A stretch of DNA of 64,000 bases from an uncultured Methanosarcinales archaeon (GCA_964455675.1 CAYVYK010000001.1:76463-140462); one strand, 5' to 3'. Positions 1-44,273 are shown, counted from the stretch's first letter. Translations and numbers: made by a program. The notes: generated by a model not told the origin, from the letters alone.

Positions 1-207
1 AGCCCTCTTGATATTGGTGCACGGATCGATATTGAGGGCTTTGGAACCTATTGGTATCAGTATGATCGGTATAACGAACTAAAGCCGATCGCGGGTATTA
101 GTAGGTATGAGACGTATAGTCTTCATCAGAACGCGGTGTTCGAGAACGGGACGCGAACGCGCACCCATATCGAGCTTATTGCCGAGAGCAAGGTGCTTCC
201 ACGATGA
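1..207 (+). CDS. 3' end of a CDS running in from the window edge; hypothetical protein, probably part of the pilin-like operon
   Basis: Frame 1 is open from base 1 (SPLDIGARIDIEGFGTYWYQY...ESKVLPR) to TGA at 205-207, which overlaps the next ATG (ATGA coupling). Confidence 0.65.
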   Translation, partial: SPLDIGARIDIEGFGTYWYQYDRYNELKPIAGISRYETYSLHQNAVFENGTRTRTHIELIAESKVLPR

Positions 208-683
208 GACGGATTGGTAAGAGGGGGATTTTGTGGCCGATGGTGATGGCAGGTGCCTTGCTCGGCATCAGTCTTGTGCTCGTGATTAGCTATGCGTATT
301 TTGGTTTGATCGCAAAGCACGTTATCGAAAAGGCACAAAGTCCTGATATCGATGCGGAAAAGAGCTCGTTTCTTCCGCTACTCCTGCAGAAAAAAGTTGG
401 TAATGGTGTCCTTGCGGACGTTATTGCAGACGGGGAATTTGATGTGGTGAAGCGTGAGATAAATGAGTGGCTTTTCGTGAGGTTTGACAAGAATATTGAC
501 TGGAACTTATATGTTGGCGGAACAGAAGTTGCGGATAACCAGCTTGTCGGATTCATCAAGGGTAGAGAGTTTGTTGCGTATATTCCAAGCGATAAAGGTC
601 CGATAAAAGTTGAGCTTGAGGTGAGCATGGATGCGTGGGATGGTGAGGTAAAACGGCCTTTTTTTGATGGGGTGATACGGTGA
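204..683 (+). CDS. Prepilin-like protein with class III signal peptide, 159 aa
   Basis: N-terminus MRRIGKRG|ILWPMVMAGALLGISLVLVISYAYFG: basic leader, Gly, then a hydrophobic helix. Translationally coupled to both neighbours. Confidence 0.75.
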   Translation: MRRIGKRGILWPMVMAGALLGISLVLVISYAYFGLIAKHVIEKAQSPDIDAEKSSFLPLLLQKKVGNGVLADVIADGEFDVVKREINEWLFVRFDKNIDWNLYVGGTEVADNQLVGFIKGREFVAYIPSDKGPIKVELEVSMDAWDGEVKRPFFDGVIR

Positions 684-1795
684 ATCGTAAAGGCATTGTT
701 GGTTGGATGATCAGCGTGTTCTGGGTATTCCTCTTGCTCATTATCTTATACGGGGTATGGGCGATAGATCTTGCTCTCCTGAAGAAGACGAATTCAGTGA
801 CTGATGTTACAGGCACGAACGTGATTTCGTTGTACAGCGCAGATGAGGAGCGTGAGCGCGCGCTGCTGTATGTGGACCTTGCGGCAAGGAAGAGCATACC
901 GCTCGCGATTGAGGATCTTGCTTCGTCAGGCGGCCTATCACACCACCGTTGTGGCAAGATTCTGCTCAATGATAAGGAGTATGCGGTCTGGAAAAATGAT
1001 GAGAAGTCTTGTATTCCGGGAAACGGTGATCTTCGTGTTGCGTTCGGAAAATTTCTGAATGATCGTCTTAATCCTTTCCTTCAAGGGTATCCAGAGAATC
1101 CCTTGCCGACGAACAATTATGATGTCACGCTCGACGGAAGTCTATCCGTGCATGGTATTGCGCAAAAGATCGTGACGCGCAAACTGTATAATGATGCAAA
1201 AGAAGTTATCGGCCAGTATAGTTTCTATCCTTCGTTTACGATTGCGTATGAGTATGATTTGAGTGGAAAGTATGCTCTCTATAGGTCTCAGGTTGACGCG
1301 ACAGTAAAAATTTGGCGTGAGTGCATGGAGAGAGGTAGTTCCACGAGCGTTGACGCCGATGATGCAATCACGTGTCGAAACGAGGCTGGAAAAGTGCGCA
1401 AGGCTCTCGAGCAGTCATTCATGGACGCTCACCGTGACCAGTATGTGCTTGTGTTCGAGATCTCGGATGACGATTCGAAAAGTGTGACGCTGCGGTGCGC
1501 CGAGGCGCTGCGTGATGATATTCCTCCTCCCCTGGTGGAGGATATGAAGGTGGAGATGAGAGACGGCGCTCAAATCATTTCGTGGTCAAAGAATGCTGCA
1601 AGTGATGTGGATAAGTATGAAATATTCGCAAGTGAGAGCGATTTCACTACGACTGATCAAGCGTCAATTCATGGAGTGACCCGCGAGACGAGTTTGGAGC
1701 TTGGGTTAACTGGCGAATGGTATGTTGCGATCGTTGCCGTGGACGGTCATGGTAACAGAAGAAAAGATGTGAAGACAGTCCACATCGATGTCTAG
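680..1795 (+). CDS. Prepilin-like protein with C-terminal fibronectin type III-like domain, 371 aa
   Basis: MNRKG|IVGWMISVFWVFLLLIILYGVW leader. The C-terminus PPLVEDMKV...IISWSKN...DVDKYEIF...WYVAIVAVDGHGN fits the FN3 W/Y/AVD..GN pattern. Confidence 0.75.
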   Translation: MNRKGIVGWMISVFWVFLLLIILYGVWAIDLALLKKTNSVTDVTGTNVISLYSADEERERALLYVDLAARKSIPLAIEDLASSGGLSHHRCGKILLNDKEYAVWKNDEKSCIPGNGDLRVAFGKFLNDRLNPFLQGYPENPLPTNNYDVTLDGSLSVHGIAQKIVTRKLYNDAKEVIGQYSFYPSFTIAYEYDLSGKYALYRSQVDATVKIWRECMERGSSTSVDADDAITCRNEAGKVRKALEQSFMDAHRDQYVLVFEISDDDSKSVTLRCAEALRDDIPPPLVEDMKVEMRDGAQIISWSKNAASDVDKYEIFASESDFTTTDQASIHGVTRETSLELGLTGEWYVAIVAVDGHGNRRKDVKTVHIDV

Positions 1796-1822
1796 CAGGA
1801 ATTATTTTGGAATTTCTTAAGC

Positions 1823-2509
1823 CTAACCAAAGTGGATGACAAGTTTGTCCAGGAGAGCATTGCTAAACCATTCTGCCCGGGTGATATTTCCGACGAGTAC
1901 CCCTCCCTTCTGCTGCCATACTCCCCCGTCCGCTGGAGGTATAAATCTATCTGTTTGGTCTTCAATTTTGAAGTAGAAGATGCCGTCCTTGAGAGGAATG
2001 AATCGTGCGGTAAGTTCCTGCTCATAATTGGGTCCCCATACGATCTGGGTTTCTGGCATTGCGGTGACCCATTCCTGATCAACGAAGATGTAGATCCATG
2101 GTGTTTCTCCTTCGAATTTTTCCATGATGAATATTTCCATGATGCCGTTCGTTGGATCCATGTTGGGACCGATTTCAACGATTGCCACTCCTTCATCCAC
2201 AGCGTAGGTGCCAAAGAATATTCCTTTGTAAAGTCCGTAGCTCTGGAATGCGGTGAATACTCTTCCATCATGGTAACTGATGATGCCCCGTTCGTTATCA
2301 TACGTCGCGCGCTGGCCGCTTGCTGCAGGGACGTCCACTCGGGAGTATGTTGGTTCCTCAACAATCCAGTTCTTGGGGTTTGAAAAGTATGAGGGATCAT
2401 TGCGCTCGTGGGTAATGATCAGTCGTATTCCCCATCCTAGGAGGAAGATGATAATCCCTACGATGATGACATACTTAGCGATGTTGACAAGTTTTTGTTC
2501 AAGGTTCAT
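1823..2509 (-). CDS. Membrane-anchored hypothetical protein, 228 aa, last gene of the minus-strand pilin operon
   Basis: Single N-terminal hydrophobic helix (YVIIVGIIIFLLGWGIRLII) followed by a beta-rich domain; starts 4 nt after the stop of the 1000-aa gene. Confidence 0.75.
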   Translation of the reverse strand: MNLEQKLVNIAKYVIIVGIIIFLLGWGIRLIITHERNDPSYFSNPKNWIVEEPTYSRVDVPAASGQRATYDNERGIISYHDGRVFTAFQSYGLYKGIFFGTYAVDEGVAIVEIGPNMDPTNGIMEIFIMEKFEGETPWIYIFVDQEWVTAMPETQIVWGPNYEQELTARFIPLKDGIFYFKIEDQTDRFIPPADGGVWQQKGGVLVGNITRAEWFSNALLDKLVIHFG

Positions 2510-2513: not shown

Positions 2514-5500
2514 TCATCCGTTCAATTTGTTCGCATTTGAGATTTGTTCGACTGGATCCGAAACGTCGGTGTTTGGCCACTTCTGCCAGAATTCCGTGAT
2601 GGCCCCGCGGATCCCTGCATCCGCGGCAGCGACGGGTACAAGCGTGGGGAGAAGTGCCGCTCCGATCGGTGCTGTGATTGGTATGACTGTTAGGACAGGA
2701 ACCGTGATAGAATATGCGATCTGCAGTCCCGAGAGCGCGCTTTGCACATTTTCACTTGCGGGGAATCGGCCGTAGCAGTAGTTGATTTCTCCCTCAGCGA
2801 GTACGTACGGTTTTGGTTTGATGAGGAGGCATTCCGTGCTGTATTCTTCCCAGTCGCTTGGGCTTCCGGTCACAAGGCTGCTCCAGTAGTGCTGGACTCC
2901 TTCCCATGTGCTTCGATCAACACATTCTTTTACAGCCATGCTGTAATCCACGTTCTGTGCGATCAGTTGATCACTCTTCATGCTGTTCGTGAGCTTGTTT
3001 TCCGAGGGCCGTGAATGAAGCATTGCGCTGACCTTTCGCGCGTCTTCTTCGCTGATATCCGGATTCTTGAAGGCGAGCGTTGTGGGCATGACGTCAATGA
3101 AACCTCCACCAAAATTGAAGTGCAGATTTTCCTTTTGCGTGAAGCATTTGCACATCGCTTTTTCGACCTTAAGGTCGGTCCTGCAGGGGCTCACGAGATA
3201 GAACCGTTTTGTTGGAACGTCGTCGTCATTGTACCGCTCATGCAGCGCGATATAGAATTTTTCCGCGGCAGGTGAGAGCGGGTAGTCTCTGCTTGTGCCT
3301 AGGGCCATGGGTGTGCTCACGGAAAGGGTATTCATTCCTGATGGCGTGAAGTGGCTGTACATATCATCGAGTTTTTGGCTGACTACTCCGGCCATGAGGA
3401 GGAATGTCCATCGCTTTCCATACATCCACTGGAATGCGTGCGCTCCCTGCGCGAGAGGATTAAGAGTTGAAGGGGAGAGTTTGAGCATGATGGGCAGTAC
3501 CGGTCCATCGATCCATCCCCCGGTGGGAACAGGCATCCTGCTCACGGTATGCGCCCCCCATTCGGAGAAGAGCTTTGCCATGGACTCGTGCGGCACTCCG
3601 GAAAGCGCTGCTTCCGCAGCTGTTTCATCAATGACCCATGCGCGCTTGAATATTCCTTCCTTCGTAAAGAGGCTTGATGCGCGCTGTTCGTACGCTTTCA
3701 TCGCTGCGGTCTGATAACTTTTCGGGAGCTGTGAGAGTCCTTTCGTTGCCTGTTCGAACGCTTCTTTTGTCATCTCATCGACTGCTTCTTTGGAGAGTTT
3801 CTCTCCTGATTCATCAAGCATTCTGTTGAGGAGGTTGTAATAGGATAGTTCTACTGCCGCTTCCTTGAGGACCGCTCGAGATAGCGGTTTAGTCATTCCA
3901 TCCGCTGCTTCTTTGATGATTGTTTTAGAGAGCGCTTCGACCTCTTCTGCCGTCATTTTTTGCACTCCTTCCTCCCCATACTCTTTGAGGATGAGTGGCA
4001 CGACTGATTCGAAGTGTTGCGCCGCTGCTGTTTCGATTTCAGAGATCGTGACTTTCGTTGTTCCTCGTTGTGCGGCTCTGACGGCGTCCTCCATCGCCAT
4101 GACAAGCGCGGTGTCAAGCTCGCTTGCGGCTGCACTTCCAATTTTTCCGCCGTAGAGTGACGCAATCCGAGCTTGGGTTGCGGACAGTTTGATGAATGCT
4201 TCAGTTCCCTCTTTTGTGTATGTTGTGCTGAGTTCTTTGAAGACCGTTTCCGTGGCGCCCTCCATGAGGTTCTTGCTGATTTGCTTGCCTGCTCCTGGCG
4301 CGAACTTGAGGCCTATGAATTCTATGCTCGCCGCAACGACCATGTCTCGCCCGATATTCCAGAGTGAGTCGGTGACATCAAACGTCCAGTGGGCTTCAGG
4401 CCCTTTGGGAAACTGTTCGTAGTATACGAGATACTGGGGTTTCCCAAATGAGGTGATAAAGGCGCTGTCTGCCGTCTGTTGTGGCATCCCAAATCCGCAC
4501 ACCATGCATGAGTAGTCTGTTTTGTCGCACGCAACTTGGATTCCTTCGCGTATAGTGACGCCGCCCATGCATCCGCCTGCAGGTAACGTGTAATAGTCTC
4601 CCGCGAACGGATTGATGGTGTCAAGTGTGTCTCCTACGCCCGTCCAGAACCCGTCCCGATTCACACTTCCTTCTCCCGCCGCGTCCTTTGCTGTCGGCTG
4701 GAGGAGGAATCTCGCCCATGCTGTGCTGTGGCCGTCTTGGTAATAAATTGGAATTCCTCGCCCGCTTGCTTCTTCCGTAATGTGTCCTTGTTTTCCGCAA
4801 TAGTAGACTTTGAGGTATGGACATTCAAGAACTGATGGGCTGCTCTGGCATTTAAGGGGATTTGCGGGATCATACGTTGCAAGGTCGCTTCCGTCGAATT
4901 TGTCTCCATTTGTCGTCTGCTTGTCACATGCTGGTGTTCCGTCTGTATATTCGACATGGATGCCAAAATTGTACATCGTTTCAAATCCATCAACGCGTTT
5001 CTCTTCATAATACTGGGGATGCGACGTAAGGACATCTTTATCATAGATGTATATGTAGGGATTGAGGTTGGAAAACATATCCTCACCGGAGAACGTGCGC
5101 TGCACGTACATGTCCGTGTTGAAGAATTCACTGACGAAATCGATGTCCGCCCAGTATTCGACGCGGACCCATCCGATTTTTTTCTGAGTATCAGTGAATG
5201 GATTATCTTCTGGTGTTTGTGTTACAACAGATACGTCTTGCCCTGATGATACGCTGTTGATCGCCATGACAAGCGCCTTCATGGAATCATCAACGATTTT
5301 CTCTTCCAATGAGAGCTGGGTTTCATATGGCGTGAATCCGCTCCCATTTGTTATTCGCCCGATTTGTCTCCCGGGGCTTTCCTTGCCAAAGAATCCAGCA
5401 TAACCGACATCAGTGATGATGCGTACGCCCCAGTTGACAAGCACGATAATGACAAGGAGCCCGAGAAGTATCGTGAGTATTCCTGAAAATGTGAATCCGA

Positions 5501-5516
5501 TTTCTCCTCGTCGCAT
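2514..5516 (-). CDS. Giant prepilin-like protein, 1000 aa, with a central Ala/Glu/Lys-rich helical region and a hydrophobic C-terminal segment
   Basis: MRRG|EIGFTFSGILTILLGLLVIIVLVNWG leader; Cys-containing domains flank a Cys-free helical block of about 280 aa; C-terminal IAYSITVPVLTVIPITAPIGAALLPTLVPVAAA. Confidence 0.8.
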   Translation of the reverse strand: MRRGEIGFTFSGILTILLGLLVIIVLVNWGVRIITDVGYAGFFGKESPGRQIGRITNGSGFTPYETQLSLEEKIVDDSMKALVMAINSVSSGQDVSVVTQTPEDNPFTDTQKKIGWVRVEYWADIDFVSEFFNTDMYVQRTFSGEDMFSNLNPYIYIYDKDVLTSHPQYYEEKRVDGFETMYNFGIHVEYTDGTPACDKQTTNGDKFDGSDLATYDPANPLKCQSSPSVLECPYLKVYYCGKQGHITEEASGRGIPIYYQDGHSTAWARFLLQPTAKDAAGEGSVNRDGFWTGVGDTLDTINPFAGDYYTLPAGGCMGGVTIREGIQVACDKTDYSCMVCGFGMPQQTADSAFITSFGKPQYLVYYEQFPKGPEAHWTFDVTDSLWNIGRDMVVAASIEFIGLKFAPGAGKQISKNLMEGATETVFKELSTTYTKEGTEAFIKLSATQARIASLYGGKIGSAAASELDTALVMAMEDAVRAAQRGTTKVTISEIETAAAQHFESVVPLILKEYGEEGVQKMTAEEVEALSKTIIKEAADGMTKPLSRAVLKEAAVELSYYNLLNRMLDESGEKLSKEAVDEMTKEAFEQATKGLSQLPKSYQTAAMKAYEQRASSLFTKEGIFKRAWVIDETAAEAALSGVPHESMAKLFSEWGAHTVSRMPVPTGGWIDGPVLPIMLKLSPSTLNPLAQGAHAFQWMYGKRWTFLLMAGVVSQKLDDMYSHFTPSGMNTLSVSTPMALGTSRDYPLSPAAEKFYIALHERYNDDDVPTKRFYLVSPCRTDLKVEKAMCKCFTQKENLHFNFGGGFIDVMPTTLAFKNPDISEEDARKVSAMLHSRPSENKLTNSMKSDQLIAQNVDYSMAVKECVDRSTWEGVQHYWSSLVTGSPSDWEEYSTECLLIKPKPYVLAEGEINYCYGRFPASENVQSALSGLQIAYSITVPVLTVIPITAPIGAALLPTLVPVAAADAGIRGAITEFWQKWPNTDVSDPVEQISNANKLNG

Positions 5517-5678
5517 TTATCCACCAAATATCTGCCGTAAAAATCCGATTTTTTCAAGGAACACGACGCGTGTTTTTCCAATGACTAAAAGGATGACAAC
5601 GATGACGACAAGTACGAGGACGAGGGCTACGACATAGTTCCATCCAACCATTCCTTTTAGCTTATGACGAAGTTGCAT
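5517..5678 (-). CDS. Mini prepilin, 53 aa (absent from the ORF track)
   Basis: Manual translation: MQLRHKLKG|MVGWNYVVALVLVLVVIVVILLVIGKTRVVFLEKIGFLRQIFGG*. Its stop abuts the ATG of the 1000-aa gene (TAAATG). Confidence 0.75.
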   Translation of the reverse strand: MQLRHKLKGMVGWNYVVALVLVLVVIVVILLVIGKTRVVFLEKIGFLRQIFGG

Positions 5679-6682: not shown

Positions 6683-6685
6683 GTG

Positions 6686-6808
6686 CTACCCCATGAATCC
6701 TATACGCTTTGCCGCCGTGTAAACGGCCCACAGGAGGAACGCAAAGAGGACGACGATGACAATGATTTTTACCACGGTTCCCCAGAGCATGCCGCGTTTC
6801 GTCTGCAT
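6686..6808 (-). CDS. Mini prepilin, 40 aa (true start inside ORF-track entry 6686..6907)
   Basis: MQTKRG|MLWGTVVKIIVIVVLFAFLLWAVYTAAKRIGFMG*, preceded by GAGG and a TTATATA box; first gene of the operon. Confidence 0.75.
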   Translation of the reverse strand: MQTKRGMLWGTVVKIIVIVVLFAFLLWAVYTAAKRIGFMG

Positions 6809-6828
6809 CTTCCTAACCTCGTTACTGG

Positions 6829-6843
6829 CGTATATAAGTTTTA
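6829..6843 (-). promoter_or_regulatory. Archaeal TATA box of the minus-strand pilin operon (6808 to 1823)
   Basis: The minus strand reads AAAACTTATATAC about 25 nt upstream of the ATG at 6808. Confidence 0.55.
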
Positions 6844-8060: not shown

Positions 8061-8309
8061 ATGAAGAAAGCGCAGGGTATCTCTATTAATGTGATTATCA
8101 TTGCTGCGATTGCAATTCTTGTACTCGTGATCTTGGCAGTGATTTTCCTAGGCTACGTAAAGAACTGGACTGGTGACGTAAGCGCTTGTGAGAACAAGGG
8201 CGGTCAATGCTTCAGTGAAGGAACATGCCCGGAAGGCTGGGCTCCATTGAGCAACAAGTGTGATACAGAAGGAGCGGTCTGCTGTTCTGACACGGGTCTA
8301 GGGCAGTAG
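8061..8309 (+). CDS. Small prepilin with a 6-Cys C-terminal head, 82 aa
   Basis: MKKA|QGISINVIIIAAIAILVLVILAVIF leader; head CENKGGQC...C...C...CC; RBS GAGGTG upstream. Confidence 0.85.
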   Translation: MKKAQGISINVIIIAAIAILVLVILAVIFLGYVKNWTGDVSACENKGGQCFSEGTCPEGWAPLSNKCDTEGAVCCSDTGLGQ

Positions 8310-35750: not shown

Positions 35751-38700
35751 CTAGGGGTTGATCTCTCCGATGAAGCAGAGTACGCCATCATTATTTATCG
35801 AGATGGCTGCATCAGTATCACTATAAACAATCAGGGCGGAATCAGCAGTGTCACACGTCGTTTCATGCCCTTCACATGATCCTTCTTCTGCACAGATGCT
35901 GCCGTCCGGTGCGATGTATGCGATAACTCGTGTTCCTGCATCATTGTATATCGTTAGTGAGTTGGCTGGAGCACTAGAGCAGCCTCCAATTCCTTCGATC
36001 ATGCATGCGGACGTGATAACGTTTCCGCTGTCGTAAAGCGCCACAATGTTGGTGTCAGCGTCGTCTTTGATGAGAACTGCTGTTTCATCAGGTGGCGCGT
36101 CAGGCCTCGGAACCGTGCTATCATCAAGTCGCAGCGAGCCTGTGAGCTGTTGCCAGAGCCCCGCAAGTCCATGGATGCTTCCGGATATTTCATTTCGGGA
36201 GACAATGTGATAATTTCCAGTGACGACATCGCGTGCGCAGTACGCTCCTCCTTGCATAGTCCCGAGTGTTTCATAGATGGTGTCGCAGATAGTGCTTCCT
36301 TCTTCTGGAAATCCAGAGAGTTCCATCATGGTGAATTCTAGGTCTGTTCCTCCTTCAATTTTTGTGGGCTCGTACCGTCGTTCCAGGCTTGCGTACATAT
36401 GGAGTGGTCCTTTGCTTGCCATGTAGTACATATCTCCTCCACGGCTTTGCTCGATGAATGCAATATCTTGCTCCCATGATGAGGGAAGCTCGCTCTCAAT
36501 GATGGATATGATCTTTTCAACAATTTGGTAGATGAAGTTAATAAGCCATTCTATCATGAGGCTGATGAGGTTTTGGTCCGTGACTTCTGGTATTGGCTCG
36601 TCATTTTCCCATGCAAAAATGATCGTATTCATGCGTGGATTGAGCCATACGCCTCGTTCGCTCTGCTCAGGCCAGGAGCATTCATGATAGCCCTCCTCAT
36701 TTTGCTCGATAACATCCTTGCATGCCATGAGGCTTTTGTAGTGGTTGACAGGATCAAGGAAGAGTCCGAGCGATCGTAGTATTCCAACATCGTCGCTTTC
36801 AGGGACGGTTTGGTTTCCCAGATTGGGACGGCTATTGAGAGCGATACCCACGTAGACCTCTTTTGGATTTGATCCTCGCCGAATAACGCATACTTTCTCG
36901 ACAGCTCGTAAGCCAGCGATGTGGGTATCATCTTCCAGATCATGCGCAGGTCTTAGGTATGAGTCTACCGTCGTGGACCACATGGGTAGTCCTCCGACGA
37001 CATAGTTGTACATGTTAACGGCATCTGAAAGATCGCTGCAGTACAGTGTATAATCGTGCGAGAAGAGTCCTCCTGCTTCTGTTTCTCCGATCACGCGCAG
37101 CATTGCCATGCCGAGGTCTCTGTTTCGACTTGCCCAGTCGCCGACACCGCTCGCGTTTACGCTGCAGATATAGTCCCCCCAAAAGAATCCGGGTTCCACA
37201 CACGTGAGCGGCGGTGATGGAAGCAGTGGATTTCCAAACAGGCACTGATCTTTCTGGGGGCAATACCCCCATGCGATATGGCGCGGAGCGTATTTTGGTT
37301 CTGCCTGCACCCATTCTGCGACTCCACCGCTCCCGATTCTGCATCGATATCCTGGTGCGGATCCTCGTGATGGTTCATTGGGATCATCAAAGTCTGAGGC
37401 AGGCACACATTCCCCGCTGCTGCCGGCCCCTCCGTCCCAGCACGCCTCAGCTGGGCAGCATTCTGCCTGAAGTCTTCCAGGTGGCATATCCCATTCTGTG
37501 TAACCAAGATGAAGTTGGTCTGTTGCATCTGCTCCAACGTCAGCAAGCGGTCTCCATACTTCAGCGTAGGAGCAGAACCGGTCCGTATGTTTTTCGCAGT
37601 ATGCGTTGTCATCGATGACCCAGGATGAGAGGAAGGACATGGTGTTTTTTCCGCCATGGGCGTCGGGATTGTCAGGGAATCCATAAGGGAATAACGGTGA
37701 TGGAGCGAGGAGGAAGTCGTTTGATGCTGGATGGTTGGGATCGACAGTCATGATCGATGATGGTGGGTTGCCGTTGTATGGTTTTCCTCGAAGTTCCGAG
37801 CTCCTCCATCCTGGTGTATATTCGACGCCGCTATTGTCAGGAACGAGAGTTCCGGTGGTGTCGATGGCGCATCCTTCAAACGTTCCTGTGGGCGAGATGA
37901 TTACTTCATAAAACAATGTCTGGATGCCGCTTCCGTCGTGATCAAACCGAAGGAACTGTGGTGTTCCCGTGCTTCGTTGCTGGTACGTACTCTTGAAGCA
38001 CGCTCCTGATGTATCGCCGTTGTAGCTCTCGTATCCTATGTTGCGTGAATCTTCTTGTTCGCCGCAGCACTGCCCGCCTGCGTAATGGAGTCCTGCGAGT
38101 TGACAGTCTGATTGGCTAGTGTCAAGATCCGTGCTGAATTGGTGGTTGCCCTTGCAGTAGTACCAGAGTGGCTCTGCCGCGCCATCATTTGCTATCGCGT
38201 GCCCTCCCGAAGTAAGATGATCTGCATGTGCGCCAGGAGTTTTGCAGAACGCAGGGGAGTCGCCGCAGCATTCTGCGATATGAGTTTTATCGCTGGCCGC
38301 GCGATTGGTATCATACGAGCAGAGCATACCATTGCCGCCGACGATGTTAGGATTCGGTGTGTCAACACCATACTTCTTGAACGCTCTGGTTTCAGCGCCG
38401 CTGTTGATCGTAAATAGCGGAATCGGGGGCGCTGGAGTAAATAAGGATCCTGTTCCGCAATAGACCGCTTGAGGATAGCTGTCCGCGACGGTGATGCTCG
38501 TTCCGGCATTCGCGAGGCAGTTTGGCTTCCATACGTCGCCAATGCCGGTGGTGGTTTTCCATCCCCATGCTGGCGTGTCTGCACAAATTTTTGTCCCGTC
38601 TTGAAATACGTTGCCGCAGTCAAGGAATGCGCTGTCAATGGGTGTGGTGACATCGTCGCCGCAGCACGCTCCGCCCGCGGAGTCCATGACAGGGGAGTAT

Positions 38701-39704
38701 GACCAATATCTTTTTTGGACAAGGTTTGGTGGCGCTCCTGTTGGTTGATTGTCTTCTTTGAAGCAGTACGCGCATGCGTTCTCTCCCATGTCAGGATCAT
38801 CGTTGGCGTCCGGGCCGCAGCAGTTTCCTCCTCGGGATGCGACTCCCCAGTTGTCCCAGGTGTTGGGTTTTGATGGATCAATGCCTGAACAACCGAGTGC
38901 GTTGCAGATGAGTTTGCTGTGATCCCAGTTCATGTCAAGGACAAAGTGGATGGACCTTGGTTCTCCTGCTGGATAGATTCCTGGAGCGCCGGCAACAGTG
39001 ACCGTGATGTCATGGACGCCTTTATTTTGGCAGATCGCGCTCGGGATGAGTCGGTAGAGCATCGTGCTTTCTGCTCGTGAATGAGTGTCTTCTCCAGGTG
39101 GAGGACTTGCTTGCGAGAGATATCGTTCAGTTCCAAAGCATGCGGGATTTGTGGGAGGCATTGTGGATACCCTGCTGAAGAGATTGCTTCTGACGTGGTC
39201 ACGGTTCGCGCATATGACGCCGAGGGCAAGATTGCAGTTGTCATAGAAGAGTGTTGGGTTGCCCGCATGAAAATAGGAACACATGTCCGTCCATCCTGCA
39301 GGGGTACTTGCGGGTAGTGAGTCAATTGTTCCCGAGAAGAGGTTTGGAACAATGCTACCATCCGGAAGCGTTGTTTGGGATGTAATCGTAAGTGTGTGGT
39401 CTTGGGGCGCCGGGTCCTGTCCGCTGACGAGATCTTCAGACCTGAAATAAATGTAGAGGTATGGTGAAACGCCTGATGATGAGTCTCCAAACTCAGTGTA
39501 CACCCCAGCCCATCCCGCTGCGTCTGCTGCACCGCCAATATCTGCGTATGTGTTCCCAGCGGATGGATTTAGGCCGTATTGGTAATTGACAACTTTTACT
39601 TCATACTGTGAACCAGGAGCGCATCCTTGGAGAAACATGAGAAAGAAGACTAGTAGTACACCTATGAGACTTACAAGTACCCTAATCCCTCTTCTATTTC
39701 GCAT
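35751..39704 (-). CDS. Large lipoprotein, Cys-patterned protein, paralog 2 of 3, 1317 aa, with an extra C-terminal domain
   Basis: Lipobox-like MFLQG|C; GGNCCGPDANDDPDMGENAC, CCGDD, CCGE, FCSYAEVW, AECC; extra tail of about 110 aa with repeated (I/V)xND.G..(V/I)A.I..DG..C units. Confidence 0.85.
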   Translation of the reverse strand: MRNRRGIRVLVSLIGVLLVFFLMFLQGCAPGSQYEVKVVNYQYGLNPSAGNTYADIGGAADAAGWAGVYTEFGDSSSGVSPYLYIYFRSEDLVSGQDPAPQDHTLTITSQTTLPDGSIVPNLFSGTIDSLPASTPAGWTDMCSYFHAGNPTLFYDNCNLALGVICANRDHVRSNLFSRVSTMPPTNPACFGTERYLSQASPPPGEDTHSRAESTMLYRLIPSAICQNKGVHDITVTVAGAPGIYPAGEPRSIHFVLDMNWDHSKLICNALGCSGIDPSKPNTWDNWGVASRGGNCCGPDANDDPDMGENACAYCFKEDNQPTGAPPNLVQKRYWSYSPVMDSAGGACCGDDVTTPIDSAFLDCGNVFQDGTKICADTPAWGWKTTTGIGDVWKPNCLANAGTSITVADSYPQAVYCGTGSLFTPAPPIPLFTINSGAETRAFKKYGVDTPNPNIVGGNGMLCSYDTNRAASDKTHIAECCGDSPAFCKTPGAHADHLTSGGHAIANDGAAEPLWYYCKGNHQFSTDLDTSQSDCQLAGLHYAGGQCCGEQEDSRNIGYESYNGDTSGACFKSTYQQRSTGTPQFLRFDHDGSGIQTLFYEVIISPTGTFEGCAIDTTGTLVPDNSGVEYTPGWRSSELRGKPYNGNPPSSIMTVDPNHPASNDFLLAPSPLFPYGFPDNPDAHGGKNTMSFLSSWVIDDNAYCEKHTDRFCSYAEVWRPLADVGADATDQLHLGYTEWDMPPGRLQAECCPAEACWDGGAGSSGECVPASDFDDPNEPSRGSAPGYRCRIGSGGVAEWVQAEPKYAPRHIAWGYCPQKDQCLFGNPLLPSPPLTCVEPGFFWGDYICSVNASGVGDWASRNRDLGMAMLRVIGETEAGGLFSHDYTLYCSDLSDAVNMYNYVVGGLPMWSTTVDSYLRPAHDLEDDTHIAGLRAVEKVCVIRRGSNPKEVYVGIALNSRPNLGNQTVPESDDVGILRSLGLFLDPVNHYKSLMACKDVIEQNEEGYHECSWPEQSERGVWLNPRMNTIIFAWENDEPIPEVTDQNLISLMIEWLINFIYQIVEKIISIIESELPSSWEQDIAFIEQSRGGDMYYMASKGPLHMYASLERRYEPTKIEGGTDLEFTMMELSGFPEEGSTICDTIYETLGTMQGGAYCARDVVTGNYHIVSRNEISGSIHGLAGLWQQLTGSLRLDDSTVPRPDAPPDETAVLIKDDADTNIVALYDSGNVITSACMIEGIGGCSSAPANSLTIYNDAGTRVIAYIAPDGSICAEEGSCEGHETTCDTADSALIVYSDTDAAISINNDGVLCFIGEINP

Positions 39705-39750: not shown

Positions 39751-42700
39751 TTACTGTACGCGTAGCTCCTGAGTGAGTTGCTTCCAGTCCGAGAAGATTC
39801 CTACATCCGGATTTGTCTCGGCTCCACTATTTTCTTCTGAGTAAATGAGATAGTAATCGCCAAATGATGTGCAATCGTAGTTTGCACCGCTGCTGGCTAG
39901 CCACTTGTCTGTTGTTCCGCACACATCACTCACGCGAGAATCTGCTTTGTTTGAGTAGTTGAGGTAGAGGTAGTGTTTGCGCTGCCCTGGTGCTCCTTCG
40001 CCGAGATGTTGTGCAGGCTCGGGGTAATAGGTTTGTATCATTCCTTCGATAGTGCGCATATCCTCTCGGATGAGATACACCGTATCGAACACTTTGTTCT
40101 GTTCGATCATTTGGAGGGAGTCCGCGATAAATGGTGTTGATGTTCCCATCACGAGCTGGAATATTCTTGCGAAGAACTTGAGGATATGGCTGATGACGGT
40201 TTGGTACCATGATCCTTGGAATGAGAATGAGCCTGTACTGTAGACGATCGCCCGCTGGTCAACATTGAGTGAAAGATATGCCTGATTGTTGCTTCTGCAG
40301 TCGAGGAATTGCTGATCTCCTGGTGCTTCTCCTGCTGCGACTTGGTTCTGGCAGTCGGTACTGCGTCCATTAAAGAGACCGAGCATCTTGAGTGATCCTG
40401 GTGTTCCGCTTTCAAAATTCTTGTTGATTGTTGTTCCAATGATTGGCGCGTGGTTTCCGTATTCAAGCACGCAGAACTTGTTCGTGCATGGCACTTTTGG
40501 CGTCGGTGTTCCTGCTCCGTCCACGAACCGATAGCTTCCGCTCGTTTCTTTGTATCCAAACTGGAGTGGACAGATTGTGCTTGTATATCCAGGAACAAGT
40601 CCATCGCCTCCAACGGGGATACTGAGGATTTCGTAATCATAATAGGTCATGATGTCGCTGTAGGAATCACAGATCAAGCTAAATTCAGTCTGCGCGGTGC
40701 TGTGATCATTCACATACGTAAGCATGGAATCCGCAAGGACTTTGGTTCGTGTTGTCCAGTTTGCAAATGGCGCTCCTGTTTTGTACTGGCAGTAATAGTC
40801 TCCGACATATGTGCCAGCTGGCACGCAAATAGGATTGGCTTCATTTCCTGCTTCGCCGCTCGGATTCCAAAGGCACATCGTGTTGTCATGGCAGTATCCT
40901 GTTTTTCTCCTGTCAGGAGTGTATCGCACCTTAGCTTGGAGCCACTGTCCGTCGTAACAGCGCCATCCATCATCATCGCCTCCGGCTGCAGAATCCGTCT
41001 CAAGGTTATAGAAGAATTGGTTTTCACAGATGGTTCCATTCCAGCATTGTGTAGGCTTGCAGCATTCCGCACGCTGCACCCATGATCCTGTTGGTTGTGG
41101 TGTCCATCGAATATAGCTTAAGTGGCTTCGCTCATCAGAGTGTGGATCAACTGCCCACGTTTCGTTGTAGCTGCAAAAGACGTCTCTGTCAGGAAGTTCG
41201 AGGTACCTGCAGTACACAGAATCGTTAATCGCAACGGTATCGAGCACAACTTTGTTTGGCGCATCCGGATATCCCATGAGCCAATCGTTTGAGTAGCTTG
41301 GGATTGTCTTTCGCATTCCTTCCTCATACGGCCTGTGTGGATCTGCATAGGTTGGCTCAAATTCTGGATTGTCAGCCATATCAACGCCATCGTTAACATC
41401 ATCATCTTGATCTACTGCACATCCTTGCATTACTCCGTTGTGAACGACGACTCCTTTGTGGTAAACCCATGATCCTGAGGTGGATTCAACGAGAAGCCTT
41501 CCGTTCAACTGCCGGTATCCTCCAAAGCACGCGCCAAGTGTTGGTGTAGTACTTCCGCCTCCGCCAGGTGGCGTGCCTCCGCCGCTTCCACCACCCTCAG
41601 GTGGTTCGCCGTCACCCGGTGAATAGTCGGGTGGTGGGCCGCTAGGTCCTCCGCCTGATGGAGGCTCTCCTGGAGTCTGGCCTCCGCTTGCCTGTGGAGG
41701 ATCATTGTATACTTCAAATGGATCGTCATGTTCTCCGCAGCAATAGTTGCCTGTCCACACAATCCAGTCGCCATTCCATGATCCTGCGACGAGTTTCTGC
41801 GCCGCGTCACAGTCTGTTTGGAGTTTGTTATCAAGGTCCATGCTGAATTCTGTTTCTGCTCCTTCCCCTGTGCAGTAGAAGTAGTGGCCGTCTGTTCCAG
41901 TCTTTCCCATTTGCACAGCCACTTGCCCTTGGGATAACCGTTCGCCTGCGGCGTCATCTCCATCATCGGATCGTGGAGTTCCGGTTCCCGTGCATTCTGA
42001 GATAATCATCCGTTCGGGTGACTCCTCTTCTCCATCATCTCCGATCACAGCGGCTCGTCGATAGCAGAGGTATCCATGATAAGGTGTGTTGTAGGTGATC
42101 TGGAATGGATTTGGAACTGGATCATCATAGAGTGATATTCCGCTTCCTGGTGGCCATACGGGATTTCCAATGTCAGCCACGACGTTTGTTCCGAAGAACG
42201 ATCCGCGGAATGTGTGCGACCTATTGCCTCCTCTCTTGTACCAGAGCGGATCATTTGAGCTTGCTGGTGGCTTGCCGAGTGTGTCTATCTGGAAGTTGCT
42301 GCCCATGTAGCAGCCTATGACACGATCTCCCGCAAGCAGGACTTCGTTGTCCTGGCATCCGAGATTCTTTATTGCGCCGACAAGCATGGGCTCATCATTT
42401 TCATCATCATAACCTACCCAGGCGTAGTTTGTCGCTGTTGTCTTCATGCACACGCTGCTGTTGTCAGTGCTCACTGCTCCGCAGTCGTACGAGTCGTCTC
42501 CGCAGCACCGGTTCGACGTTCGAATCATGAGCGGTGTGTCGGCTGGTGTTTCTCTGCAGAGGAATTTCCACTGATCTCCGAACCTGCTGATATAGGCGGC
42601 ATCGTTGCAGATTGTGTACATAGGATTGTCAAAGACGTGCTCAACGCCGGTGTCACTCCACATGCGTTTGGTGCCTTCAAATTGATATCCATCATATGTA

Positions 42701-43968
42701 GGTTGGTGTTCTCCTGATAGGCAGTGCGTGCACGCGAGTGGTCCCATGTCTGGATCGTCCCAGAAGTTATTGATCGTGCTGACGATTTGCGCGTTGTCAT
42801 CGTTCGTCTGAAGCTCATTGATGAATTGGATGAAGGACTCCGCAATTTCTGATTTATCGACGGTGATATATTCCTCATACTGATCCATGCTTTCGTCAAT
42901 CTGGTCGAGGAGTTCTTGAAGCCCTGATCCGCCGATGCCTCCCTTTATTCTGTCGACACCGCAGCATTTTCCTCCTAGAGCATAGTCTGCGTTCTCGTCC
43001 CACACAGGGATTATTGTTCCAATGTCCTCTGCAGCATCCTCGCCGATTTGCTGGGCGATGACGTCCGTTCTTCCCGCTCTGCAGAAATACTCGTTGTGGT
43101 CCCGGTTGATGTAGAGTTCTCGAGTAATGGCGCTCTCCTGGCTAGTGTGTTGATCGCCCGTTTCCGTGTCACCATCATAGTTGACCGCTGTCTTGATCCC
43201 AGAATCCCATGTGCTCATGATGTGTTTGCCTTTCGTCCCAAGCACGGCTGGGTGGAGGAGGTTCAGAAGGTACATGTTTGTGTTGTACTTTCCTGGCGCC
43301 CCGCTCTGCAGTATTGCGATGATGCTGCACATCAGATTTGCGGAGAACTCATTCTGGATTGGTCCTTCCCTTGAGAGCATTGTGGTCCCGCCCTCAGAGA
43401 AATCGCTTCCTTCATAGGCGAACCCACAGTTATTCTTGAATGCAAAATTCCCGTCGGTAATTTCAAGGATGTTGTGGTCAAAATTAAGTTCCGCCGGGAG
43501 CTGTATCTCTCCTGTGGGCATGTAGGAGATAGAAGCATAAAACACAGGGTATGCGATGTCAAGGTAATAGCGGAATGGGTAATTGGTCAGGTTTGGCTCA
43601 TAATGGCTTCCGATGTAGAGGAGATTGACGTCTGATTCGGCTCCCTCGTTTGCGGGGATGTACCATGATCGGTAGAACAGACGGTAGCTTTCGGGATTAT
43701 CCGGATCGGCCACTGCCCAATCCCGAAAGTCAGTTCCTTCGCTGAATGTGCTTCCGGTTCGGAAGTCTTCAACAGGATTCATCTGGTTGTCAATGATATC
43801 AACGACAAATCCTCCGTTGTCGATATACCCAGGGAGCTCAGTGACTGTGAGGAGTGATTCCCATTCTTCTCCGCATCCACTCGCGAATAGGACCAAGAGA
43901 ATAAGTGCACAAGAGATCTCTTTGTGCTGATTGATGCGTCTTACTACTTCACCTATCCTGTTGTACAT
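39751..43968 (-). CDS. Large lipoprotein, Cys-patterned protein, paralog 3 of 3, 1405 aa
   Basis: Lipobox-like LFASG|C; GGKCCG...DDPDMGPLAC, CCGDD, YCCGE, FCSYNETW, AECC, WTTRTK; Pro/Gly low-complexity insert. Confidence 0.85.
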   Translation of the reverse strand: MYNRIGEVVRRINQHKEISCALILLVLFASGCGEEWESLLTVTELPGYIDNGGFVVDIIDNQMNPVEDFRTGSTFSEGTDFRDWAVADPDNPESYRLFYRSWYIPANEGAESDVNLLYIGSHYEPNLTNYPFRYYLDIAYPVFYASISYMPTGEIQLPAELNFDHNILEITDGNFAFKNNCGFAYEGSDFSEGGTTMLSREGPIQNEFSANLMCSIIAILQSGAPGKYNTNMYLLNLLHPAVLGTKGKHIMSTWDSGIKTAVNYDGDTETGDQHTSQESAITRELYINRDHNEYFCRAGRTDVIAQQIGEDAAEDIGTIIPVWDENADYALGGKCCGVDRIKGGIGGSGLQELLDQIDESMDQYEEYITVDKSEIAESFIQFINELQTNDDNAQIVSTINNFWDDPDMGPLACTHCLSGEHQPTYDGYQFEGTKRMWSDTGVEHVFDNPMYTICNDAAYISRFGDQWKFLCRETPADTPLMIRTSNRCCGDDSYDCGAVSTDNSSVCMKTTATNYAWVGYDDENDEPMLVGAIKNLGCQDNEVLLAGDRVIGCYMGSNFQIDTLGKPPASSNDPLWYKRGGNRSHTFRGSFFGTNVVADIGNPVWPPGSGISLYDDPVPNPFQITYNTPYHGYLCYRRAAVIGDDGEEESPERMIISECTGTGTPRSDDGDDAAGERLSQGQVAVQMGKTGTDGHYFYCTGEGAETEFSMDLDNKLQTDCDAAQKLVAGSWNGDWIVWTGNYCCGEHDDPFEVYNDPPQASGGQTPGEPPSGGGPSGPPPDYSPGDGEPPEGGGSGGGTPPGGGGSTTPTLGACFGGYRQLNGRLLVESTSGSWVYHKGVVVHNGVMQGCAVDQDDDVNDGVDMADNPEFEPTYADPHRPYEEGMRKTIPSYSNDWLMGYPDAPNKVVLDTVAINDSVYCRYLELPDRDVFCSYNETWAVDPHSDERSHLSYIRWTPQPTGSWVQRAECCKPTQCWNGTICENQFFYNLETDSAAGGDDDGWRCYDGQWLQAKVRYTPDRRKTGYCHDNTMCLWNPSGEAGNEANPICVPAGTYVGDYYCQYKTGAPFANWTTRTKVLADSMLTYVNDHSTAQTEFSLICDSYSDIMTYYDYEILSIPVGGDGLVPGYTSTICPLQFGYKETSGSYRFVDGAGTPTPKVPCTNKFCVLEYGNHAPIIGTTINKNFESGTPGSLKMLGLFNGRSTDCQNQVAAGEAPGDQQFLDCRSNNQAYLSLNVDQRAIVYSTGSFSFQGSWYQTVISHILKFFARIFQLVMGTSTPFIADSLQMIEQNKVFDTVYLIREDMRTIEGMIQTYYPEPAQHLGEGAPGQRKHYLYLNYSNKADSRVSDVCGTTDKWLASSGANYDCTSFGDYYLIYSEENSGAETNPDVGIFSDWKQLTQELRVQ

Positions 43969-44020
43969 TACGCTTCCTCGATAAGTCTTCCTAACAGGTC
44001 ACGCTCTTTTTTGGAAACCG

Positions 44021-44032
44021 GATTTATAAATC
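44021..44032 (-). promoter_or_regulatory. TATA box (palindromic GATTTATAAATC) upstream of the 1405-aa gene
   Basis: TTTATAAA at 44023-44030, about 55 nt upstream of the ATG. Confidence 0.5.
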
Positions 44033-44051
44033 TTGCTAAATACTTTCGTCG

Positions 44052-44273
44052 CTACGAGAAACGAGGAGTGGGGGTATATGTCTTCGCGTCAATCGTGATA
44101 GTACTGTCAGGTGGCGGCGTCGGTGTTGCCTCGCATCCGCATTCGGCTGGTGGTTCTCCTCCAAAAGACATGGTGAACGTTGCGGCTAGGAGTATCATCC
44201 CAAGAACTGCAACCGCGATGATGACTGCTATGATCCACGACGCGATAGCTCGCTTGCCAAGATGCATATGCAC
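44052..44273 (-). CDS. Small prepilin-like protein with a Pro/Thr-rich tail, about 71-73 aa
   Basis: MHLGKRA|IASWIIAVIIAVAVLGMILLAATF followed by CGC and PTPPP. Confidence 0.6.
   Translation of the reverse strand: MHMHLGKRAIASWIIAVIIAVAVLGMILLAATFTMSFGGEPPAECGCEATPTPPPDSTITIDAKTYTPTPRFS

Follow-up and report, generated by a model that had tools for sequence, protein, structure and literature searches.

A candidate type IV filament supercluster of pilin-like and giant surface-protein genes in a Woesearchaeota-related DPANN archaeon

The Epd pili of Methanococcus maripaludis are built from subunits with class III signals and Gln at +1, a residue that is essential there for EppA processing (PMC4390842). 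A multi-gene cluster encodes them, several minor pilins included, and standalone pilins lie at a separate locus (bioRxiv 10.64898/2026.04.22.720090). Members of DPANN have such system 1 (Epd-like) filaments, and archaeal loci that combine type IV filament genes with genes for large adhesin-like proteins are also known (bioRxiv 10.64898/2026.04.22.720090). Bacteria offer further points of comparison in the minor-pilin sets FimU-PilVWX-PilY1 (type IVa pili) and GspHIJK, and in the modular type IV pilins PilB and PilC of Streptococcus sanguinis, where a class III pilin module carries a grafted functional module (PMC8179133). Here we describe a locus that, with moderate confidence, we regard as a supercluster of structural genes (pilins, modular pilins and surface giants) for a type IV filament of a Woesearchaeota-related DPANN archaeon. 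In our preferred reading it supplies the subunits and adhesins of an EppA/Epd-type filament that is assembled by unlinked machinery and serves to contact and breach hosts, and it is probably the host-contact apparatus of the cell.

The window, that is, the whole stretch of 64,000 nucleotides that was analysed, had been described in an earlier note as holding a surface-apparatus locus at 1-44273. This locus is real, but its left end extends further: about 2.5 kb lie beyond the left edge of the window, with four further pilin-like genes and an Lrp/AsnC regulator to the left of position 1. As the note had supposed, the organism is archaeal and the locus is of DPANN type, Woesearchaeota-like. The co-oriented minus-strand series that it reported from 43968 to 13631 is present with the sizes given (1405, 1317, 482, 1217, 903, 3041, 1480 and 209 aa), followed by three more pilin-like genes of 394, 160 and 193 aa. 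Neighbours in this series overlap or are 0-100 bp apart, with the exception of the 427 bp between g16 and g15.

Using g15 as the search handle, a collinear cluster was found beside its homologue in 55 other loci, in the order G20, g19, G17, g16, g15, g14, g13, small Cys-rich pilins, g6, u4, u5, g2 and RPA. Counted over 56 loci, in neighbourhoods of +/-10 kb of the g15 homologue, the conserved families stand in canonical order in 54/56, and 54 of the loci come from Woesearchaeota/Nanoarchaeia genomes; the gene order on which the earlier proposal had been staked is thus conserved, more than 50 species-level genomes sharing both the set and its order. On sequence grounds, the stretch of about 47 kb in our organism is a rearranged and expanded copy of this cluster. 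It differs from the collinear arrangement in having two inverted blocks, each with an Lrp/AsnC regulator at its head, three G20 paralogues (g20, g22 and g23) and the extra giants g18, g4, g11 and g21. The families are large (217 g15-family proteins; 1147 representatives for g16, g14 and g13 combined), they are not covered by any Pfam or NCBIfam model, and their members go by the name 'hypothetical protein' throughout. The suggestion of an undescribed system therefore holds for the families, which are unannotated, but not for the kind of system, which is already known (bioRxiv 10.64898/2026.04.22.720090).

The likeness to Epd pili begins at the N-termini. All 14 starts at which class III-type leaders had been noted open reading frames, and in 14/14 products a short basic leader, with [KR][GAS] as its last residues (RTSQ at 30644), precedes a hydrophobic stretch of about 20 residues. 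A crude rule finds 22 class III-like N-termini in the window, 18 of these in 1-44300, so that about 18 locus products have one; applied to ten Markov-shuffled windows, it finds 1-5 in each. Nine of the 14 leaders belong to families whose conservation spans Woesearchaeota and which bear the class III (prepilin) hallmark of K/R at -2, G/A/S at -1 and a near-invariant Gln at +1, namely those starting at 680 (g2), 6682 (g6), 8061 and 8318 (small pilins), 11544 (g13), 12019 (g14), 13203 (g15), 14260 (g16) and 30644 (g19). Position counts were tabulated for five families: G/A/S occupies -1 in 47/47 members of g13, 48/48 of g14, 49/49 of g16, 21/21 of g19 and 68/73 small pilins, and Gln occupies +1 in 47/47, 48/48, 48/49, 21/21 and 55/73, respectively. 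The leaders of g2 and g6 were judged by eye, that of g15 is conserved in the alignment with a motif of its own, and these three are without Gln at +1. For the leaders at 204, 5516, 5678, 6808 and 44273 the motif is present but no orthologue could be detected, and each consequently rests on a single sequence. At the level of sequence, the conserved families carry the exact signature of EppA-type substrates (-2 K/R, -1 G/A/S, +1 Gln).

As in M. maripaludis, part of the subunit set would lie away from the machinery. Here, contrary to the Epd pili, the locus has no ATPase, platform genes or EppA. Pfam searches for a T2SSE/FlaI-type ATPase, TadC/FlaJ and peptidase A24 agreed with the earlier note in finding none in the window, nor were any found in the 10 kb to its left, and the 56 neighbourhoods, each reaching 10 kb to either side of the g15 homologue, were likewise devoid of genes for an ATPase, a platform protein or a prepilin peptidase. 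Other differences are the lack of sequence or profile similarity to Epd proteins (EpdA-E) or to any Pfam/NCBIfam pilin model, the larger number of pilin-like families (ten to fourteen, against about five), the six-cysteine heads of the small pilins, the giants of 1000-3000 aa and the hydrolase-bearing members in relatives.

The core of the cluster is a quartet of pilin-like genes on the minus strand: g16 (209 aa, 13631..14260, MRKS/QIIGQTFVY, the slash separating -1 from +1), the large g15 (394 aa, 12019..13203, MRTGKRG/VFQEQFNWIFVLVAGA), g14 (160 aa, 11537..12019, MKA/QMKMMETF) and g13 (193 aa, 10963..11544, MNKRS/QMEIMG). Their families occur in 50/56, 56/56 (g15 being the search handle), 49/56 and 48/56 loci, respectively, and the four genes are contiguous in 41 of 56. 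Glu is found at +6 in 47/48 g14 proteins, and g13 has Glu at +3 and Gly at +6, both in 47/47. AF2 models predict for g14 (pLDDT 95.8) a helix at 2-56 and four antiparallel strands (100-159), and for g15 (pLDDT 88.4) a helix at 7-61 and a large beta/alpha head. By secondary-structure topology, both modelled proteins are pilin-like 'lollipops', with an N-terminal helix of 55 residues and a beta-sheet head. Foldseek returned no pilin for either model (best E-values of 1.5e-3 and 0.055, to unrelated proteins), so that the case for a pilin fold is one of topology. No PDB match was obtained for the g15 head, the PDB profile search gave no matches, and no Pfam, NCBIfam or PDB sequence match ties any member of the locus to a known pilin family.

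These null results, together with the absence of a peptidase or ATPase from the window and the 56 neighbourhoods, would be expected if the proteins were ordinary signal-anchored (type II) membrane proteins, that is, lineage-specific surface proteins with uncleaved anchors, unrelated to type IV machinery. Proteins with a single N-terminal helix are abundant in DPANN proteomes. We nevertheless consider this explanation improbable. Type II anchors give no reason for G/A/S at -1 and Gln at +1 in 47/47, 48/48, 48/49 and 21/21 orthologues, nor for a conserved Glu at +3 or +6, and the modelled helices, at 55 residues and continuous with the beta-sheet head, are longer than a membrane span. Ordinary Sec signals or membrane anchors, which the earlier note had named as fatal to its proposal, are not what the N-termini look like, as the class III signature extends across about 50 orthologues per family.

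The quartet resembles the bacterial minor-pilin sets in its four pilin-like genes in fixed order, in having, like GspHIJK, one member that is much larger and has an extra domain (g15, compared with GspK; PMC8179133), and in having, like FimU-PilVWX-PilY1, a large exported adhesin-like protein as its immediate neighbour (here G17, there PilY1). Its role is likely to be the same, priming and tip formation. Contrary to those sets, it has no detectable homology to them, no secretin or outer membrane is involved, and its leaders are of archaeal type (Gln at +1, without the Phe+1/Glu+5 pattern). In type II secretion, the major subunit GspG is accompanied by the minor subunits GspHIJK, and the one small major-type and four minor subunits of our locus recall this pattern. 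The quartet and small pilins could then form a pseudopilus, a short piston that serves not for adhesion but for pushing Sec-exported giants and hydrolases through the S-layer; exoproteins with Sec signals or lipoboxes do crowd the cluster, and the GspK-like size and extra domain of g15 would also fit. This is quite improbable, given that G17 is membrane-anchored and not released, that the hydrolases are fused to pilins instead of being separate cargo, and that the proteins show no homology to Gsp proteins; to our knowledge, no such system exists in archaea.

The candidate major subunits are the small Cys-rich pilins g9 (82 aa, 8061..8309, plus strand, MKKA/QGISINVIIIAAIAILVLV, 6 Cys) and g10 (82 aa, 8318..8566, plus strand, MAKG/ENLSLSTIVIAAI). 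Their family has 73 members in 33/56 loci, in 1-5 tandem copies, with 6 Cys in 59/73, a mature length of about 60-70 residues and an invariant hydrophobic helix. They bear on the question of whether the locus encodes a filament at all. Large non-filament proteins with class III signals are found at the archaeal surface as substrates of the Sulfolobus bindosome (Bas), and the bindosome study reportedly set the precedent for such signals on non-pilin proteins. A bindosome-like surface layer, a host-facing 'toolbox' without a long pilus, would suit the large size of many members (341-1000 aa), the enzymes they bear in relatives and the lack of a linked assembly ATPase in all 56 loci, although this last point does not discriminate between the two explanations, because a bindosome needs an ATPase and platform too. 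We judge it unlikely. The tandem small pilins fit a polymerising major subunit, g14, by its model, is pilin-shaped and minimal, without any added module, and the fixed quartet has the pattern of filament-priming minor pilins. Bas substrates, moreover, are sugar-binding and linked to ABC transporters, whereas our locus has no transporters and combines tandem small pilins with a minor-pilin-like quartet.

A third component of the proposed filament consists of larger pilin-like proteins. The 371-aa product of g2 (680..1795, plus strand, MNRKG/IVGWMI; family in 21/56 loci) keeps a conserved N-terminal module of about 200 aa, common to the 10 relatives whose C-termini were scanned; these ended in VanY/Peptidase_M15 (5), SLT (1) or fn3 (1). 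The family of u4 (343 aa), found in 23/56 loci, has long forms in relatives with an Amidase_3 module. No hydrolase module was detectable in the window's own g2 or in u4, and the C-terminal module of g2 had no enzyme match. From their sequences, the g2 and u4 families are modular pilins, with a pilin-type N-terminus and a functional domain that varies between orthologues. They resemble the S. sanguinis modular pilins in that the carrier is kept and the module swapped between lineages (in g2, VanY/M15, SLT, fn3 or unassigned), and differ in that the carriers are archaeal and without the IPR012902 motif and that the grafts are peptidoglycan hydrolases, in an organism making no peptidoglycan. We found no report of archaeal pilins with grafted peptidoglycan hydrolases in the literature searched.

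Outside the window, upstream of u5, are u4, u3 (155 aa), the small Cys-rich pilin u2 (94 aa) and the left-hand Lrp/AsnC regulator; u5 itself (153 aa, pilin-like, plus strand, family in 22/56 loci) starts 254 bp left of the window and ends in it (1..207). Among the other larger pilin-like proteins, g6 (341 aa, 5657..6682, minus strand, MKKRG/EITTSE) has a family in 30/56 loci, mostly as 1-2 copies after the small pilins, and g19 (903 aa, 27933..30644, minus strand, VRTS/QIAIFF) one in 24/56, with orthologues typically of about 400 aa. Two lineage-specific genes have class III-like N-termini: g4 (1000 aa, 2514..5516, minus strand, MRRG/EIGFTF), with no Pfam or PDB match, and g1 (159 aa, 204..683, plus strand, MRRIGKRG/ILWPMV), with no family match and no orthologue cluster in the 56 loci.

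The giants have Sec or lipoprotein signals. The one always immediately upstream of g16, in 46/56 loci, is G17, represented here by g17 (1480 aa, 14268..18710, minus strand), with a Sec signal, a Cys-rich ectodomain with TSP3 repeats, a transmembrane segment at 1234-1252 and then a basic cytoplasmic tail of 228 aa. G17, g16 and g15 are contiguous in 44 of 56 loci. Nearly every complete orthologue has a C-terminal membrane anchor and a basic cytoplasmic tail of 130-310 aa, and adhesin-type modules in the family include TSP3_bac, Big_13, Big_3_3, SdrD_B and CarboxypepD_reg. PilY1 has no such anchor and tail, and searches for its C-terminal beta-propeller domain came up empty for g17, g18, g20-23 and 20 orthologues, so the giants were rejected as PilY1/PilC tip adhesins. 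The lineage-specific g18 (3041 aa, 18707..27832, minus strand) has a Sec signal, 159 Cys, a very acidic composition, two CarboxypepD_reg domains (5e-23) and Y_Y_Y, with no PDB sequence match and no orthologue cluster in the 56 loci. The G20 paralogues, whose family heads the cluster in 19/56 loci, are g20 (1217 aa, 30646..34299; Sec signal, Cys-rich, no anchor), g22 (1317 aa, 35751..39704; lipobox LQGC) and g23 (1405 aa, 39751..43968; lipobox ASGC), all on the minus strand.

Domain support for the term 'giant adhesins' used in the earlier note is confined to g17, g18 and g21. Its host-attachment machine of pili and adhesins is upheld as far as class III signals, pilin-like models and conserved order go, but the adaptor role that it gave to large pilins, as carriers of non-pilin giants, is unsupported, because the giant always adjoining the quartet anchors itself in the membrane and because the large pilin-like proteins look like modular pilins with functional heads of their own, which in relatives (g2 and u4 families) are peptidoglycan hydrolases.

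Fibres of Bdellovibrio serve prey recognition. The secreted g21 (482 aa, 34300..35748, minus strand) has GIGT repeats matching PDB sequences of Photorhabdus PLL lectins (1e-16) and Bdellovibrio bacteriovorus fibre proteins (8oml, 8ond, 8ol4 and 8ojn). The likeness is limited to g21, a gene that the canonical cluster of relatives lacks, and the match spans the repeats, not the whole protein. Fibre and lectin repeats, and giant, variable, Cys-rich proteins, also recall the tail-fibre-like, receptor-binding proteins of an integrated virus or mobile element. Such an origin is highly unlikely: GC content is uniform over the window, the cluster adjoins RPA at the same place in many species, the g15 profile had no match in 2.9 million viral contigs and its model none in BFVD, and searches of the window turned up neither capsid nor terminase nor integrase.

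In the filament that we propose, a prepilin peptidase encoded elsewhere would cleave the leaders, and a FlaI/PilB-type ATPase and platform proteins, also encoded elsewhere, would polymerise the subunits; Woesearchaeota MAGs are described as having 'archaeal flagella genes' in their core (PMC9723730). The shaft would consist of the small six-cysteine pilins g9, g10 and u2, the invariant quartet g16-g15-g14-g13 would make up the priming or tip complex, a role that falls to minor pilins in type II secretion and in the type IV pili of bacteria, and g2, u4, g6, g19 and g4 could act as modular pilins presenting functional heads on the filament. The apparatus, with the anchored and secreted giants, would bind the host cell and, in lineages with hydrolase heads, might open a bacterial wall locally. 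In groundwater samples from which many of these MAGs were obtained, ultrasmall cells are joined to hosts by pili (PMC7906910), and Woesearchaeota MAGs are reported to encode murein transglycosylases (PMC9723730). A more ambitious and tentative reading takes all this together: a Woesearchaeota-wide filament, some of whose pilins are fused to peptidoglycan hydrolases (lytic transglycosylases, amidases and carboxypeptidases), would seize a bacterial host and bore through its wall, with the membrane-spanning G17 linking the parts outside the cell to the cytoplasm. If true, archaea would have an organelle for both attacking and attaching to other cells such as has not been described in them, and much of the clade would have bacterial, not archaeal, hosts.

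The remaining genes include g8 (304 aa, 6904..7818, minus strand), a 7-TM membrane protein with no family match, rejected as peptidase A24 for want of a GxGD motif and a Pfam match, and g3 (228 aa, 1823..2509, minus strand), with an N-terminal membrane helix, no clear [KR][GAS] site and no family match. Leader and helix only are encoded by g5 (53 aa, 5517..5678, LKG/MVGW) and g7 (40 aa, 6686..6808, MQTKRG/MLWG), both on the minus strand. The exported g11 (605 aa, 8563..10380, plus strand; lipobox LPAC, 50 Cys) has five CxxGxC-x(3-10)-E-x(2-8)-CxxDC repeats. At the boundary of an inverted block lies the Lrp/AsnC-type regulator g12 (10232..10843, minus strand; PF01037, E = 2.5e-8), whose paralogue heads the left-hand block. 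The right-hand end of the locus is g24 (about 68 aa, 44066..44273, minus strand, HLGKRA/IASWII), a leader and helix with a short Pro/Thr-rich tail, beyond which lie an RNase P p30-like gene, a tRNA and RPA.

The locus is best read as the subunit and adhesin supercluster of a type IV filament of the EppA/Epd kind, the M. maripaludis type of archaeal filament, whose assembly machinery would be encoded elsewhere. Inside the window it comprises 24 genes, g1 to g24, between positions 1 and 44273, and the same DNA carries the archaeal markers RadA, RPA, an RNase P p30-like protein and NFACT. A Logan contig (run SRR12133404) overlaps the left end of the window and extends the locus leftwards to a full span of about 46.8 kb. 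The window itself contains one Lrp/AsnC regulator; the extension adds another, a little outside the left edge, followed by four pilin-like genes running directly into g1 and g2: u2 (94 aa, starting MKKG/VELSLQTIVVAAL, a paralogue of g9), u3 (155 aa), u4 (343 aa) and, at the edge itself, u5 (153 aa). Ribosomal protein S2, GatB and GyrA are encoded farther left.

The 14 class III (prepilin-type) N-termini proposed in the earlier note are all present where it had placed them. Their leaders are short and basic, end in [KR][GAS] and lead into a hydrophobic segment some 20 residues long; the leader at 30644 reads R-T-S-Q instead of this ending. A crude class III N-terminus rule gave 22 matches in the window, 18 of them inside the locus, and 1-5 matches on ten Markov-shuffled windows. 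In alignments of orthologue N-termini, g13 has Gly, Ala or Ser at -1, Gln at +1, Glu at +3 and Gly at +6 in 47/47 sequences. The same -1 and +1 residues are found in 48/48 and 48/48 sequences of g14 (with Glu at +6 in 47/48), 49/49 and 48/49 of g16, 21/21 and 21/21 of g19, and 68/73 and 55/73 of the small pilins, the six-cysteine family of g9, g10 and u2. In g15 the motif is KK[GA]-x-x-E-I-Q-F-N-W, with QFNW in 54-55 of 55 sequences. Plain signal-anchored proteins, second in likelihood among the alternatives to a filament, would not be expected to show such constraint at -1 and +1. Gln at +1 is essential to the cleavage of pilins by EppA in M. maripaludis (PMC4390842), and the Epd-type 'system 1' filament is reported from methanogens and DPANN (bioRxiv 10.64898/2026.04.22.720090). 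In an EppA/Epd-type filament, the leaders would be cleaved and the subunits polymerised; class III processing with Gln at +1 is a directly testable prediction.

The predicted folds of two members are also pilin-like. The AlphaFold2 model of g14 (mean pLDDT 95.8, pTM 0.82, from a 101-sequence alignment) consists of a helix over residues 2-56, two short helices and four antiparallel strands, a predicted topology that is that of a textbook type IV pilin. The model of g15 (pLDDT 88.4, pTM 0.84, 81 sequences) has a helix at 7-61, then a beta-rich domain and, at the C-terminus, a helical bundle. The small pilins share a nearly invariant helix, QG[LI]S[IL]N[TV]IIIAA[IL]ALxVLVVL, and their head contains six cysteines in 59/73 members; they would form the filament shaft, whereas the quartet of pilin-like genes g16-g15-g14-g13 may form a priming or tip complex. 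Foldseek searches of both models against the PDB returned no significant match, and a quartet profile found nothing among PDB sequences. An archaellum was rejected, with no match to any Pfam/NCBIfam flagellin or pilin model. As far as signals and modelled architecture indicate, the locus proteins are therefore pilin-like, with no detected tie to any described pilin family. A provirus or mobile element, the last of the alternatives, is essentially excluded: GC is even over the whole window (about 0.49), a g15 profile found no relative in 2.9 million viral contigs, and the g15 model had no significant Foldseek match among viral structures (BFVD).

With g15 alone as query, a word-indexed search retrieved only three proteins, and the order giant-g16-g15-g14-g13 is kept in both foreign contigs; a scan with the g15 alignment over one genome per GTDB species yielded 54 loci, nearly all titled Woesearchaeota, Nanoarchaeia or Nanoarchaeota. 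Families were counted by calling ORFs in the loci, clustering them by all-against-all BLAST and scoring those within 10 kb of a g15 homologue, with 56 loci, the window included, as denominator. The g15 family is present in 56/56, g16 in 50/56, g14 in 49/56, g13 in 48/56 and G17, the giant family of g17, in 46/56; then follow the small Cys-rich pilins (33/56), g6 (30/56), g19 (24/56), u4 (23/56), u5 (22/56), g2 (21/56) and G20, the giant family of g20/g22/g23 (19/56). Six more pilin-like families occur in relatives and are missing from the window. The canonical order, on a single strand, is G20, g19, G17, g16, g15, g14, g13, small pilins (1-5 copies), g6 (1-2 copies), a few variable pilin-like genes, u4, u5, g2 (1-2 copies) and RPA. 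Of the 56 loci, 54 keep the conserved families in this order, 41 have an uninterrupted quartet and 44 have G17-g16-g15 contiguous. More broadly, a 5.8-billion-protein collection contains at least 217 g15-family proteins at E <= 1e-3; those named are all 'hypothetical protein' of Woesearchaeota or Nanoarchaeota, and no Pfam domain was found in any of the 217. An exhaustive search of representative clusters with the fused window sequences of g16, g14 and g13 gave 1147 clusters at E <= 1e-3 and 302 at E <= 1e-10. An exact-protein look-up found no record of the window's g15 or of a 371-aa reading of g2.

The window copy is made of these canonical parts, but arranged in two inverted blocks, each starting with an Lrp/AsnC regulator, and is expanded by three G20 paralogues, g18, g4, g11 and g21. 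The minus-strand series of 1405-1317-482-1217-903-3041-1480-209 aa described in the earlier note is real and is followed by products of 394-160-193 aa. Its genes are closely packed; the exception is a gap of 427 bp separating g16 from g15 (13204-13630), which contains no convincing ORF and no Rfam family at gathering score; in relatives the two genes are adjacent or close. At 10232-10380, g11 (plus strand) and the Lrp/AsnC gene g12 (minus strand) converge with a 149-bp overlap, and the C-terminal 50-70 residues of g12, beyond its AsnC domain, have the appearance of read-through; a rearrangement breakpoint bordering the inverted block would fit this.

Some relatives differ in other ways. In locus L010, inserted genes (4834-9886) split the quartet between the g16 and g15 homologues. 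Pfam matches to chorismate synthase, DHquinase, shikimate kinase and shikimate dehydrogenase, from a locus scan that does not assign them to proteins, probably belong to these inserted genes; such an interruption would show that insertions are tolerated in the cluster. L042 and L055 lack the small-pilin part; instead they share a conserved group of five small proteins with 4-5 TM segments (clusters 80-82), encoded past the quartet at 3-5 kb downstream of the g13 homologue. Many public MAGs with the Woesearchaeota-type cluster (L010, L012, L014, L017, L020 and others) are titled 'uncultured Methanosarcinales archaeon' and one 'Candidatus Aminicenantes bacterium', likely through taxonomic mislabelling or mis-binning.

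Across all locus proteins, Pfam and NCBIfam recognise TSP3, CarboxypepD_reg and AsnC only. G17 orthologues contain TSP3, Big_13, Big_3_3, SdrD_B and CarboxypepD_reg modules. Nearly every complete G17 copy beside g16 has a Sec signal, a single transmembrane helix near the C-terminus and a tail of 130-310 aa with 20-37% Lys/Arg, which makes G17 a type I membrane protein and not a free tip adhesin. The G20 proteins carry a Sec signal or a lipobox and lack an anchor. Some repeats of g21 recur in Photorhabdus lectins and Bdellovibrio fibre proteins, and g11 has five Cys-rich CxxGxC...CxxDC repeats. No internal repeats were detected in the giants at BLAST level, and a PDB sequence search with g4, g17, g18, g19 and g20 gave nothing useful.

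The large class III members may be modular pilins presented on the filament, an arrangement well documented in bacteria (PMC8179133). Pfam scans of orthologues show g2 to be modular: a class III-like leader precedes a module of about 200 aa that the orthologues have in common, and the C-terminal module behind it varies. Of the ten orthologues scanned, five end in VanY/Peptidase_M15, one in an SLT lytic transglycosylase (E = 5e-16) and one in fn3. In three lineages u4 has long forms with an Amidase_3 module (best E = 1.4e-16); jackhmmer resolved this membership, and a motif regex gave no match. In the window, g2 and u4 retain the carrier part, and their heads match no family. Wall hydrolases on pilin carriers point to bacterial hosts, and the apparatus would hold the host and open its wall. 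Earlier papers mention genes for murein degradation in Woesearchaeota (PMC9723730; PMC12352652), and hydrolase-bearing pilins would tie these scattered reports to one specific machine.

As the earlier note had stated, the window encodes no secretion ATPase, TadC/FlaJ-type platform or peptidase A24. The 46.8-kb locus, left extension included, also lacks assembly machinery, and the 56 neighbourhoods contain no T2SSE-type Walker A ATPase and no recurrent polytopic protein. That peptidase, ATPase and platform were not seen in the regions searched is the main weakness of the filament reading. 'Archaeal flagella genes' are reported within the core of Woesearchaeota MAGs (PMC9723730). Among the rival readings, a bindosome-like surface assembly is the likeliest, and a secretion-type pseudopilus comes third, after plain signal-anchored proteins. 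Two membrane proteins, the 7-TM g8 (6904-7818, minus strand) and a 240-aa protein (60353-61075), were rejected as prepilin peptidases, with no GxGD motif and no A24 match; g8 falls into no Pfam or NCBIfam family, and none of the 55 related loci carries an orthologue of it.

For Woesearchaeota, which rank with the most abundant uncultured DPANN archaea, the cluster offers a concrete, conserved set of about a dozen families, every one now 'hypothetical', as candidates for a contact apparatus. In practice these families could provide markers for metagenome mining, targets for antibody or cryo-ET labelling of enrichments, and new peptidoglycan hydrolases. Large adhesin-like proteins are already described from archaeal filament loci (among them systems 2, 4A and 4G, 4A having a PilY-like protein; bioRxiv 10.64898/2026.04.22.720090). 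In the literature compared, four features appear to be without prior description: a dozen unannotated families conserved as this one cluster, the location of the cluster apart from the filament machinery, the membrane-spanning giant beside the quartet, and archaeal class III carriers bearing peptidoglycan hydrolases. Large subunit loci placed elsewhere in the genome will escape any census of archaeal type IV filaments that starts from the ATPase and platform genes.

To the right of the locus, a 111-nt tRNA match (45494-45604, minus strand, Rfam 46.7 bits, unreported by ARAGORN) lies at the locus edge just upstream of RPA and is probably an intron-containing archaeal tRNA. A 5S rRNA gene (46961-47077, minus strand, Rfam 71 bits) is located between RPA and an LPG-synthase-like gene, with no 16S or 23S rRNA beside it in the window. 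An 894-aa fusion (49069-51753, plus strand) of a complete UDP-glucose/GDP-mannose dehydrogenase (N, central and C domains) with a UTP-glucose-1-phosphate uridylyltransferase (UDPGP) sits among nucleotide-sugar genes, a block that possibly serves surface-protein glycosylation. A 574-aa fusion (53559-55283, minus strand) joins a HAD-type hydrolase to CofD (2-phospho-L-lactate transferase family, E = 1e-97), a surprise in a DPANN genome, where cofactor metabolism is reduced.
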